Virus record (IMG/VR): IMGVR_UViG_3300025913_000091
Coordinates: 1-28,535 of that record
Strand: one strand, 5' to 3'
Source: a virus
Length of the DNA: 28,535 bases
The notes below the pieces were generated by a model that saw only the letters and a list, made by a program, of their open reading frames with translations, was not told the origin of the DNA and did no database searches. Each line of letters opens with the position of its first letter. The stretch's first letter is position 1. Below are positions 2,971 to 3,452 of this stretch, in pieces. The position numbers and the translations under genes were made by a program.

Positions 2971-3452
2971 GCTTCCTCCGCACATACGACCGAGACATCT
3001 TCCGGTCAGACAACGGCGTCCGGGAGTGGCCCATCGTCCCGCTCAGGAACGACGGCGACGAGTGGGAGGTCGACGACCGCCCAGGCCTCCCGCCCATGTG
3101 CCCAGGCGACTGGGTCGCTCACCGCTCCGACGGCGGCCGCGGCATCATTGTCGCCATCAACGATGAGCAGGCCTCAGTCGTCTGGTCCCTCCTGCCGGAG
3201 GAGCGCGATCTCTCGAAGTTCGCCTTTCCCATCGTCAGGACGACGTTCCCGCAGCTGCAGGCCCAGCAGCTCGTCTCCGTCCAACCCATGACCGCACCTG
3301 TGGGTGCCATCTTCTACATGGACTACAAGTACGGGAATGGCAGCGAAGCCCCTCCCGCTGCGGCCCCGCCCGGCCCAGGCTTCCCCAAGCCCAACCGCCG
3401 GGCCCCACGGCGGCCTGGTCGGCCCCCTCGAGGCCCTAGAAAAAACCCGTGA
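2967..3452 (+). CDS. small protein, VLWS-module family member E; carries a gp23 Gol-region-like segment and a Pro/Arg-rich tail
   Basis: GTGA overlap with the previous stop; module MCPGDWVAH..GRGIIVAINDEQASVVWSLLP; IVRTTFPQLQAQQLVSVQPMTAPVGAIFYMDYKYG versus T4 gp23 MVRRAIPNLIAFDICGVQPMNSPTGQVFALRAVYG (recalled). Confidence 0.7.
   Translation: MSFLRTYDRDIFRSDNGVREWPIVPLRNDGDEWEVDDRPGLPPMCPGDWVAHRSDGGRGIIVAINDEQASVVWSLLPEERDLSKFAFPIVRTTFPQLQAQQLVSVQPMTAPVGAIFYMDYKYGNGSEAPPAAAPPGPGFPKPNRRAPRRPGRPPRGPRKNP

Follow-up and report, generated by a model that had tools for sequence, protein, structure and literature searches.

A small phage protein carrying a detached capsid segment as a member of an undescribed multi-paralogue family

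Why would a phage carry a copy of the Gol region of gp23, the T4 capsid protein, in a small gene of its own? The question is raised by gene 2967..3452 in IMG/VR virus record IMGVR_UViG_3300025913_000091, which was analyzed from position 1 to 28,535 (the window, 28,535 nucleotides). A first-pass annotation had placed a Gol-like segment at 3219-3335, and both its coordinates and its sequence were exact: counted from a GTG start at 2967, residues 85-123 (nucleotides 3219-3335) read FAFPIVRTTFPQLQAQQLVSVQPMTAPVGAIFYMDYKYG. The gene and its parts are the following.

2967..3452, + strand: A-type gene, 161 aa, with N-module, capsid segment A and basic Pro/Arg tail (ORF, GC3)
2967..3212, + strand: N-module of the A-type gene, residues 1-82 (motifs MS.L+TYDR, PGDWV.H, G.G.VVA, VLWS.EP)
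3216..3350, + strand: capsid-derived segment A, residues 84-128, containing 3219-3335 (Pfam Gp23, PDB profile match, capsid HMM)
3351..3449, + strand: Pro/Arg-rich basic tail, unconserved (dN 0.248 versus dS 0.287)

The GTG at 2967 overlaps the stop codon of the upstream gene (GTGA), and its use as the start gives the N-terminus MS.L(K/R)TYDR, which is conserved throughout the homologues. GC3 in the frame of 2967..3452 was 0.82-0.87 for both the module and the fragment, marking the gene as a genuine coding sequence. Its architecture is common to 10 homologues, and the whole gene had a dN/dS of 0.28 relative to its counterpart in a related locus, L086.

To the question of whether segment A is indeed derived from a capsid protein, four kinds of profile gave the same answer. 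Pfam Gp23 (PF07068) matched 2967-3452 with an E value of 4e-11 and 43.4 bits, above the curated gathering score of 24.4, with residues 84-128 covering profile positions 6-50 of 376; a nonsignificant alignment to gp23 profiles had been named beforehand as grounds for rejecting the homology. PHROG 138 (major head protein) matched at an E value of 3e-9, and a profile of 15 homologues searched against the PDB found T4 gp23 residues 96-138 (E=2.4e-6), in the same alignment that the annotation had given. Against an HMM of related full-length capsid proteins, segment A aligned to positions 84-126 with an E value of 2e-20. In a tblastn search of 50,697 phage records, the segment matched only T4-type capsid and vertex genes, with ~50% identity over ~40 aa. 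Segment A thus corresponds to about residues 96-138 of T4 gp23, comprising the Gol region, a P-domain strand and the start of the I-domain linker, and the detached copy of the Gol region is genuine at the protein level.

The gene as a whole is not a capsid gene, in agreement with the annotation. In a 161-aa product, the Pfam match is confined to positions 6-50 of 376, and the remainder consists of an unrelated beta-barrel and a low-complexity tail; the full HK97 fold (N-arm, E-loop/I-linkers, P-domain and A-domain, in a chain of ~450-670 aa) is not present. The copy follows a recurring module, here called the VLWS module or N-module, as the annotation had noted. An HMM of this module matched 2967-3452 with an E value of 1.7e-16, and AlphaFold2 predicted six beta-strands with a pLDDT of about 80-88; segment A by itself was predicted to be disordered (pLDDT ~50). 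The module is not covered by Pfam, PHROGs, PADLOC or NCBIfam, Pfam giving only weak Tudor/SH3/KOW matches. Foldseek searches of PDB and BFVD yielded no significant fold match (best E value no lower than 0.06) and no resemblance to GroES or gp31, nor was there a Pfam Cpn10 match. A tblastn search of GenBank phages with the module returned nothing, even at E<=1.

The same module heads four further genes in the window, so that five paralogues share an N-terminal beta-barrel of ~60-85 aa and each ends in a different flexible tail: capsid segments A, B and C, a portal piece, and one short tail.

222..539, + strand: B-type gene, 105 aa, N-module and capsid segment B at 414-494 (IKAESRQLRTEWRTTDVDDL)
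1634..1915, + strand: C-type gene, 93 aa, N-module and spine-helix segment C at 1829-1897 (AAAEEIRDEIDADILEVL)
1912..2133, + strand: x-type gene, 73 aa, N-module (HMM E=9e-18) and short tail (R.LDDELEAIRR)
2587..2970, + strand: P-type gene, 127 aa, N-module (HMM E=5e-19), variable linker and C-terminal portal-derived segment
2815..2964, + strand: portal-derived segment, 50 aa (NPLASAEDF...DAEDVEYFRKNLFAALKVPKEML) (Pfam, PHROG, portal HMM)

Segment B aligned to capsid HMM positions 265-291 (E=3.6e-4), and a profile of 18 B-type proteins matched capsid proteins in hhalign with a probability of 96.9% (E=1.5e-10). For segment C, the single sequence gave a weak match (E=0.23 at capsid HMM positions 303-325), and a profile of 10 C-type proteins reached a probability of 95.0% (E=3.7e-8) in the same kind of comparison. 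The x-type tail, which is kept in three relatives (P0033, P0037 and P0089), did not match the capsid profile. The portal segment corresponds to positions 328-383 of a 614-position T4-type portal HMM (E=1.1e-8), and profile-profile comparison gave a probability of 95.8% (E=6.6e-9). Its other matches were PHROG 213 (E=6e-4) and Pfam Portal_T4, PF07230 (E=0.0025, 17.1 bits, below the gathering score of 22.9). By tblastn, it found portal genes lying upstream of capsid genes in many loci, with 62-76% identity. With only these positions represented, 2587-2970 is not a full-length portal protein with wing, stem, clip and crown. Indeed, no full-length capsid or portal gene is present anywhere in the 28,535-nt window.

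An exhaustive HMMER search extended the family to at least 183 clusters with the module (mutual identity under 50%), all of them small proteins and all metagenomic. All paralogue types share the module, and 2967-3452 shows its features (M..L.TY, PG..V.H, G.G.VVA, VLWS..P, predicted all-beta) together with a tail homologous to a short conserved T4-type capsid or portal segment. On this sequence evidence, 2967-3452 belongs, as its A-type member, to a family of small phage proteins with several paralogues that had not been described before. Among 161 representatives, tails were of type A in 58, D in 20, B in 16 and portal in 10; about one third of family members have a tail that is not recognizable as capsid or portal, and Pfam Gp23 matched 57 of 150 members. 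Tails reading 'NPCGE' were seen in four members, and their origin from ribonucleotide reductase, which was considered, found no support in Pfam. Segment D, carried by relatives, represents roughly the last 50 residues of the capsid protein; it matched the capsid HMM (E=8.5e-13 and 2.2e-10) up to the capsid C-terminus. One protein of the family, P0028, is a fusion of a B-type and a D-type unit. AlphaFold2 models of A-type and D-type proteins showed a confident barrel (pLDDT 80-94) and low-confidence tails. Placed on the HK97 fold, A (Gol region and first strand), B (return strand), C (spine helix) and D jointly make up its discontinuous P-domain; no fragment derives from the I-domain or the A-domain.

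The paralogue array recurs in five related loci (L001, L003, L086, L087 and L098), and the paralogue set varies: the window lacks D, L003 lacks C, and L098 has only portal-type and tail-less copies, which argues against an obligate complex of A, B, C and D. The genes lie within a dense array of small accessory genes, patchy in distribution and varying in copy number among relatives. The window also encodes GroEL (15786-17456) and a peptide deformylase, and in relatives a gene for a methionine-aminopeptidase-like M24 peptidase adjoins the array. No tRNA was found by a scan, and no lit-like gene was seen in the window. Related contigs as long as 369 kb were identified through marker genes. A resident capsid gene was absent from the window and from every related locus retrieved, and no portal gene of the carrier phage was recovered either. 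Scanning IMG/VR with the family alignment found full-length capsid genes on other contigs only, and none of these 80 capsid genes had an N-module gene within 10 kb.

Substitution rates differed between the parts of these proteins. In the A-type gene, dN/dS was 0.14 for the N-module, and segment A, with a dN of 0.022 and a dS of 0.205, is maintained by selection. The P-type gene had dN/dS values of 0.06 (module), 0.13 (portal fragment) and about 1.0 (linker). For a pair of variants with 80% identity, modules and fragments gave 0.06-0.14, and linker and tail about 0.9-1.0. These substitution patterns show purifying selection on the module and fragments and neutral change in the linkers and the Pro/Arg tail. 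It is the fragment that is best conserved in each protein, and the family's most conserved positions are also conserved in capsid proteins, as expected if the peptides occupy the same structural environment. Within segment A, the motif QPM..P.G..FY.DY.Y, downstream of the Gol core, is better conserved in the family than the core itself (RR..PNLIA). The annotation's description of a VLWS module and a Pro/Arg tail holds, but the tail that it emphasized is unconserved and evolves near neutrality (dN/dS ~0.86). Tails in relatives differ from it, and the C-terminus of P0049 matches the +1 frame of 3351..3449; the tail is the product of a frameshift in the window's lineage.

How did capsid and portal segments come to be attached to this module? 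Descent of the gene from a diverged 5' duplicate of a capsid gene was rejected, as the N-module has no profile similarity to the propeptide (hhalign probability 0.06%, not homologous) or to the remaining capsid protein, and BLAST extensions into residues 58-80 were unsupported. A recent DNA copy or gene conversion appears improbable from the capsid genes sampled: the best of them is 62-71% identical in nucleotides, and identical residues use the same codon in only 31-60% of cases. An intein, homing-endonuclease or split-gene origin was discarded because no paralogue matched Hint, LAGLIDADG, HNH or GIY-YIG and because the fragments are not collinear and do not adjoin the remainder of a capsid gene. 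The segments might instead be nonfunctional debris, remnants of duplicated or recombined capsid and portal genes in a fast-evolving small-ORF region. Such an origin would suit the hyperplastic array, the homing endonucleases near it, and the neutral and frameshift changes of linkers and tails. It is at odds with purifying selection on the fragments, with their being the best-conserved parts, with the recurrence of five fragment types, always on one and the same module, across at least 183 clusters less than 50% identical, and with the DNA distance from the closest sampled capsid gene, which indicates that the copy is not recent. We regard this reading as extremely improbable and close to refuted already.

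The explanation that we tentatively prefer, while considering it somewhat doubtful, is segment mimicry, in which the family would act in trans as competitive modulators of head-protein folding or assembly. The Tudor/SH3-like barrel (~60-85 aa) carries a flexible C-terminal copy of one T4-type head-protein segment, and the displayed peptide would become ordered only on occupying the site of its equivalent segment in real capsid or portal subunits. Candidate sites are the complementary strands or helices of an unfolded P-domain, or contact grooves between subunits or capsomers; the attached barrel would then block or redirect the next assembly step. The effect would most likely be inhibitory, excluding co-infecting T4-type phages or holding assembly back early. 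Segment mimicry builds on the observed homology, modular architecture, array and synteny, purifying selection and predicted disorder of the fragments, to which it adds binding partners, a direction of effect and a timing of expression that we infer. In its favor are the capsid and portal homology of A, B, C, D and the portal tails, all on one module in a recurring array. In addition, T4 mutations bypassing the gp31 co-chaperonin fall in the segments equivalent to C and D, contacts between capsomers are made by elements of the P-domain (PMC9546572), and the Tai systems provide a precedent for phages and mobile elements that interfere with assembly (PMC11364771). Against it, a peptide in trans is a poor competitor once the cis segment has been synthesized, especially for the N-terminal segment A; about one third of the family lacks a recognizable capsid or portal tail; and the paralogue repertoire varies between relatives. 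A related and unlikely variant is self-peptide display, in which large environmental phages of one clade would employ a single barrel to present, as trans-dominant peptides, short and universally conserved segments of the T4-type capsid P-domain and portal that either poison the heads of competing T4-type phages or chaperone the phage's own capsid protein.

As anti-defense decoys, the peptides would mimic capsid or portal epitopes and shield the phage by occupying sensors or abortive-infection proteases without activating them. Bacterial immunity is triggered especially often by capsid and portal proteins (Avs4, Avs7/8/10, CapRel and Lit; PMC13581612, PMC9712102), segment A corresponds to Gol, the only linear trigger known (PMC3014915), disorder is predicted for the tails, and a dense, patchy array of variable copy number is typical of anti-defense genes. 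However, structurally characterized sensors read the HK97 shape in its folded state, across thousands of square angstroms, and Avs7 contacts mainly the A-domain, which is absent from the VLWS family (PMC13581612). A copy of a trigger would also be expected to activate a Lit-like system, not to block it. No terminase fragment was detected in the family, although terminase is a frequent trigger, and neither the five paralogues nor five neighbors matched a PADLOC model at E<=0.1. Decoys are, in our view, an improbable function.

Less probable still is an action on EF-Tu or the chaperonin, partners that the first-pass annotation had suggested. On this proposal, the A-type peptide would bind EF-Tu domains II-III and/or direct the protein to GroEL, as the N-terminal quarter of T4 gp23 does, and would tune translation or the use of chaperonin, perhaps in concert with the GroEL that the phage encodes. 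Conservation in gp23 is highest at Gol, which does bind EF-Tu (PMC3014915), and the gp23 N-terminus targets fusions to GroEL (Snyder & Tarkowski 2005, as cited in PMC3012670). The location of gp31-bypass mutations in the P-domain counterparts of C and D (PMC9546572) fits this proposal too, as do the GroEL and deformylase of the window and the M24 peptidase of relatives. Yet EF-Tu constitutes 6-10% of cell protein, which makes stoichiometric titration implausible, the module does not resemble GroES or gp31, and the Gol core is less conserved than the motif downstream of it. Segments B, C, D and portal have no known link to Gol, EF-Tu or Lit, so a Gol-specific account covers the A-type only and leaves portal-type paralogues unexplained; as a complete explanation, the EF-Tu/GroEL/Lit reading is weakened. 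The same neighborhood of GroEL, deformylase and M24 peptidase would suit surrogate folding helpers, which we consider quite unlikely. The P-domain is assembled from segments distant in the chain. In analogy to donor-strand complementation by pilus chaperones, peptides in trans, especially D, might assist folding of the phage's own capsid protein by filling the place of a cis segment in the nascent P-domain for as long as that segment has yet to emerge. The fragments correspond precisely to the discontinuous P-domain pieces, without I-domain or A-domain, and the P-domain sets chaperonin dependence in T4 (PMC9546572). But the same capsid protein folds in thousands of T4-type phages that lack these genes, the repertoire differs among close relatives, the great abundance of the capsid protein would call for near-stoichiometric expression of a helper, and the portal-type paralogue is again unexplained.

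Whatever its mechanism, the family, with its simple architecture and at least 183 clusters, had not been annotated before. Literature searches for phage mimics of capsid or portal, and for capsid fragments with a dominant-negative action, found no account of such a family. Should segment mimicry be correct, these would be natural proteins built from pieces of their own targets. They would mark the stretches of the HK97-fold capsid and the portal that are functionally exposed in folding and assembly, and could provide ready-made peptide probes or inhibitors of T4-type head assembly and a new class of inter-phage competition or anti-defense genes. Self-peptide display, if true, would mean that viral structural proteins have served as a source of peptides that inhibit or complement those same proteins. 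Inhibitory self-peptides are used in antiviral drug design; to our knowledge, they are not a known natural strategy of phages.

Among known systems, the closest in sequence is Gol of T4 gp23. Segment A covers Gol (T4 residues about 93-122), is homologous to it and has the pattern RR..P.LIA.....VQPM..P.G..F.....YG when aligned to gp23 96-138. Gol is a short linear piece of the capsid protein and acts outside the assembled capsid (PMC3014915). In T4, however, it lies within a 521-aa capsid protein, whereas here the segment forms a free-standing tail behind an unrelated beta-barrel, in a 161-aa product whose sister genes display other segments, and the likeness to Gol is one of sequence. The T4-type capsid (Gp23, HK97 fold) and portal (gp20) proteins are the source of the segments, with about 50-76% identity over 20-55 residues, but each paralogue contains only 6-12% of its parent protein and no A- or I-domain, and the displayed segments are predicted to be unable to form the HK97 fold alone. 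If segment mimicry is true, the family would resemble the Tai systems of tail-assembly inhibition, in which small accessory proteins of mobile elements strike virion assembly (PMC11364771). Unlike the VLWS family, Tai proteins are not built from fragments of the target protein, and they share no sequence with the family. The same differences apply to other proteins that interfere with assembly, namely, P4 Sid, SaPI CpmB and PLE TcaP. The T4 capsid-targeting motif MKTYQEFIAE presumably resembles the family's MS.LKTYDR, over 3 or 4 residues only, and in the VLWS family this stretch is predicted to form the first strand of the folded barrel. With the T4 internal proteins, the family nevertheless shares the organization of diverse small proteins that begin with a short conserved N-terminal motif, which in T4 targets them to the capsid (PMC3012670).

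The window has a G+C content of 66%, and at its left end small genes are crowded on one strand. ORF 2967-3452 (161 aa; the A-type gene) carries the coding signature of its own genome: GC3 stands at 0.87 across the initial 84 codons and at 0.85 across the capsid-like fragment, with 0.64 reached only in the Pro/Arg tail, whose composition is extreme. ORF calling gives a longer frame for this gene, from 2769. The start was placed at the GTG at 2967, because it overlaps the upstream stop (GTGA), the GC3 frame switch falls at the same point, and the resulting N-terminus, MSFLRTYDR, shows the pattern MS.L(K/R)TYDR that is kept in all homologues.

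The first-pass annotation had described a detached copy of the Gol region of the T4 capsid protein, gp23, in this small ORF. This observation was correct: its reading of residues 85-123 was exact, and the resemblance to gp23 was significant with every measure applied (Pfam, PHROGs, tblastn, and a PDB profile). Profile alignment placed residues 84-128 significantly on positions 6-50 of the 376 in Pfam Gp23 (E=4e-11; 43.4 bits against a gathering score of 24.4), and PHROG 138 (major head protein) was matched at E=3e-9. Searched by tblastn against 50,697 phage records, the A-type protein matched T4-type capsid and vertex genes only, at ~50% identity over ~40 residues. A 15-sequence A-type profile matched T4 gp23 residues 96-138 in the PDB (E=2.4e-6), aligning lPivRRvfpqliakqlvsvqPmtaPaGaiFYldYkYG over MGMVRRAIPNLIAFDICGVQPMNSPTGQVFALRAVYG. 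Positions kept by 80% or more of A-type members read P...QPM..P.G..FY.DY.Y and are conserved in capsid proteins too, while the RRVFPNLIAN stretch is near-invariant in capsid proteins and looser in the A-type family. The closest sampled capsid genes share 64-69% protein and 62-71% DNA identity with the fragment, which gives no sign of a recent transfer. Portal and capsid HMM searches of the window found no full-length capsid or portal gene.

The gene directly upstream, 2587-2970, ends in DAEDVEYFRKNLFAALKVPKEMLR, for which Pfam and PHROGs gave a weak T4 portal assignment. Its motif recurs, at 62-76% identity, in the portal genes of dozens of T4-type loci, which lie 5-8 kb upstream of the capsid genes. 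An HMM built from those portal genes matched residues 77-126 of the product at HMM positions 328-383 (E=1.1e-8), and a profile of 13 portal-type proteins matched portals with 95.8% probability (E=6.6e-9), with two motifs in common, NPL..DEDxyIPV and D..yF..kL..aL.vP. The portal-type and A-type proteins have a common N-terminal module, with the order M..L.TYDR, PG..V.H, G.G.VVA, VLWS..P. Across the window, a module HMM identified exactly five genes (222-539, 1634-1915, 1912-2133, 2587-2970, and 2967-3452). AlphaFold2 modeled the module with confidence as a beta domain of six strands (pLDDT ~80-88 in the A-type protein, 80-94 in one D-type protein), and the A-type and D-type fragments as lacking stable structure (pLDDT ~50-68). 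Foldseek of the predicted module against the PDB and BFVD returned no significant neighbor. Descent of the module from a diverged capsid propeptide was ruled out (hhalign probability, 0.06%).

With a 506-position capsid HMM built from the closest full-length capsid proteins, we searched 73 small proteins encoded in the window or in related loci.

Capsid segments and their positions in the capsid HMM
A, ORF 2967-3452 and orthologues: E=2e-20 to 2e-14, positions 84-128
B, window 222-539: E=3.6e-4, positions 265-291
C, window 1634-1915: E=0.23, positions 303-325
D, locus L003 7046-7402: E=8.5e-13, positions 450-498
D, locus L001 9705-10004: E=2.2e-10, positions 471-505, reaching the capsid C-terminus

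Further B-type proteins match the same positions as 222-539. The single-sequence scores of B and C being weak, their capsid origin was settled by profile-profile comparison (B, 18 sequences, probability 96.9%, E=1.5e-10; C, 10 sequences, 95.0%, E=3.7e-8). The short tail of 1912-2133 had no match to the capsid profile. The capsid consensus of each segment is FTKFIFPVLRRVFPNLIANEIVSVQPMTAPVGAVFYLEYKYG for A, KAESRKLKALWSSEAADDL for B, IAQEIALEIDREIIEDL for C, and GYVYAPYVPLQVTPT...RKG.RTRY.KK...FYG for D. The tails of D-type proteins are most like the C-termini of the 630-670-aa capsid group. T4 head structures place A-D in the peripheral (P) domain and where it joins the I-domain linkers; the insertion and axial domains were never represented among the fragments found. 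P-domain elements make the capsomer-capsomer contacts of the T4 head, and mutations bypassing gp31 fall at gp23 residues 292, 306, and 307, in the spine helix, and 455, in the P-domain sheet (PMC9546572).

A word-indexed search with the A-type protein gave 10 homologues, all 10 with module and fragment, and with the module as query it added small numbers of B, C, D, and tail-less proteins. HMMER, run exhaustively over 1.84 billion cluster representatives with a profile of the five window modules only, gave 183 clusters at E<=1e-3, nearly all of 63-257 aa with the module N-terminal. Capsid and portal HMMs (domain E<0.01) were then used to class 161 representatives.

Tail types among the 161 representatives
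A: 58
D: 20
B: 16
Portal: 10
C: 1, plus ~9 more by eye
No recognizable type: 56

One protein, P0028, joins a B-type and a D-type unit. Over 150 members, Pfam found Gp23 in 57 and Portal_T4 in 3, and on the module only scattered weak Tudor, SH3, and KOW matches. The module had no tblastn match in GenBank phages even at E<=1, and none in PADLOC or NCBIfam; on these comparisons, it lies outside every curated family. P0027 (807 aa), a repetitive protein containing numerous repeats of ...RALVLWTTSPGSRFRPL..., scored against the module profile and was excluded as an apparent low-complexity artifact. Within one subclade, numerous A-type and D-type proteins (P0011, P0018, P0019, P0022, P0035, P0039, P0052, P0090, P0103, P0107, P0158, and others) end in ...SGS followed by V/T/K/I/R; this motif is not capsid-derived and could be a degron or a recognition tag. 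Four module proteins (P0114, P0118, P0142, and P0161) have a tail with NPC(G/S)E(V/I)(P/V)L, which resembles the motif around the catalytic cysteine in class II ribonucleotide reductase. Pfam gave no support for ribonucleotide reductase in these four tails; if the likeness is real, the displayed fragments extend beyond head proteins.

Substitution rates were compared by region between the window and a variant locus from the same sample (L086; 80% nucleotide identity), with counts that are small but consistent.

Substitution rates, window against L086
A-type module: dN 0.049, dS 0.344
A-type capsid fragment: dN 0.022, dS 0.205
A-type Pro/Arg tail: dN 0.248, dS 0.287
Portal-type module: dN 0.031, dS 0.547
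Portal-type linker: dN 0.635, dS 0.622
Portal-type portal fragment: dN 0.017, dS 0.132

Module and fragment are under protein-level constraint, and linkers and tails are not. The heptamer A_AAA_AAC lies at 3437-3443, within the stretch 3390-3507 that comprises the A-gene tail and spacer. In the +1 frame this stretch, GPLEALEKTRDRPMVATTAHTCNKK, matches the in-frame C-terminus of family member P0049, GPREALEKILDRTLVATMAHPGNKR; the Pro/Arg tail thus appears to be a frameshift product specific to the window lineage.

The array is syntenic across independent metagenomic contigs, and its differing composition shows that the paralogue repertoire varies.

Arrays in related loci
L001: B, two other families, then C, D, A
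L003: B, then D, A
L087: a paralogue with unassigned tail and a portal-type copy; farther along C, D, a tail-less copy, A
L098 (216-kb IMG/VR contig): portal-type and tail-less copies only

Two array variants of ~80% DNA identity, L086 and L089, occur in one metagenome (ENA sample ERZ27252312), one of them near-identical to the window. Interspersed with the array are further families of small genes (570-962, 972-1307, 1309-1647, 2161-2574, and 3504-3860), which are syntenic in L001, L003, L086, L087, and L098; 972-1307 and 1309-1647 are tandem paralogues, and 3504-3860 encodes a putative small beta domain, then a conserved helix, LLDLC.LRL.LD.FI. Three successive Cys-rich predicted lipoproteins or secreted proteins follow (3882-4778, ~4790-5257, and 5333-5770), with no family match; the last two have a common C-terminal module, CG.SS.TF.YDRAT.V.YIH.D.P.G.F.WTP.C.

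The carriers look like large phages. Window genes include GroEL, peptide deformylase, PRPP synthetase, a GIY-YIG homing endonuclease, a metallophosphatase, and Fpg; relatives encode an eIF-1a-like product and a vault-shoulder-domain protein, and marker genes are present on IMG/VR contigs of up to 369 kb. An M24 (methionine-aminopeptidase-like) gene adjoins the array in three relatives. The carrier's own capsid gene was not recovered: an IMG/VR scan with the family alignment gave full-length capsid genes on other contigs only, none with a module gene within 10 kb. Two further gene groupings were observed.

Nascent-protein gene set (GroEL, peptide deformylase, M24 methionine-aminopeptidase-like, eIF-1a-like) in the phage clade
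Window: 11997-12476(-), 15786-17456(-)
L003: 9418-10149, 15250-15522
L087: 4753-5613
L098: 3424-4185

GIY-YIG gene directly upstream of, and slightly overlapping, a calcineurin-like metallophosphatase gene
Window: 8652-10345
L087: 15022-16946
L098: 9132-10783

Recurrence of the latter pair in two related contigs suggests a conserved homing site beside the metallophosphatase gene.

Collectively, the architecture is a common folded domain with a variable, flexible head-segment peptide, kept by selection in several paralogues per genome. That these are leftover, non-functional pieces of capsid and portal is very improbable, being contradicted by both selection and recurrence. The simplest inference is that the peptides mimic their own parent segments. 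Since a peptide keeps the residues that the capsid protein needs to pack its P-domain, it would enter the same environment as the parent segment, where it may pair with complementary P-domain elements of a capsid chain still folding, or fill grooves where P-domain, N-arm, and linker elements touch neighboring subunits. With the ~70-aa barrel attached, binding would cap or derail assembly, which favors competitive modulation in trans. We tentatively suggest that the family modulates head folding or assembly in this way, probably as inhibitors; Tai is an existing example of mobile elements that interfere with assembly (PMC11364771). The proposal is weakest in that the phage might poison itself, that the repertoire varies, and that a segment in trans is at a kinetic disadvantage to the one in cis.

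Anti-defense decoys, in which displayed peptides occupy immune sensors of capsid or portal, are a less likely explanation. Among immune triggers, capsid and portal are prominent, with Gol as a linear example; however, characterized STAND sensors read folded shape, mainly of the A-domain (PMC13581612), and a copy of a trigger is expected to activate rather than block. The first-pass annotation had proposed a free-standing peptide that could bind EF-Tu or GroEL. T4 Gol binds EF-Tu (PMC3014915), the gp23 N-terminus sends fusions to GroEL according to work cited in PMC3012670, and the nearby GroEL, deformylase, and M24 peptidase (MetAP-like) genes fit such a role. This would cover the A-type and perhaps other P-domain types but leaves the portal type unexplained. 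We consider this reading improbable; within the larger system, it stands as a workable hypothesis for a single paralogue. Surrogate segments that help the capsid P-domain to fold would fit the discontinuity of that domain, but are hard to reconcile with an accessory, variable distribution, and we consider this role similarly improbable.

Compared with known systems, the A-type protein lacks the complete HK97 fold that defines a capsid protein, and its neighbor 2587-2970 likewise fails as a T4 portal. The A-type fragment is homologous to both Gol and Pfam Gp23, and a Gol-like activity would be a prediction from sequence. A literature search found no description of such proteins. No known system was found whose arrayed paralogues each join a shared domain to a different portion of the virus's own structural proteins, and the architecture therefore appears to be new.
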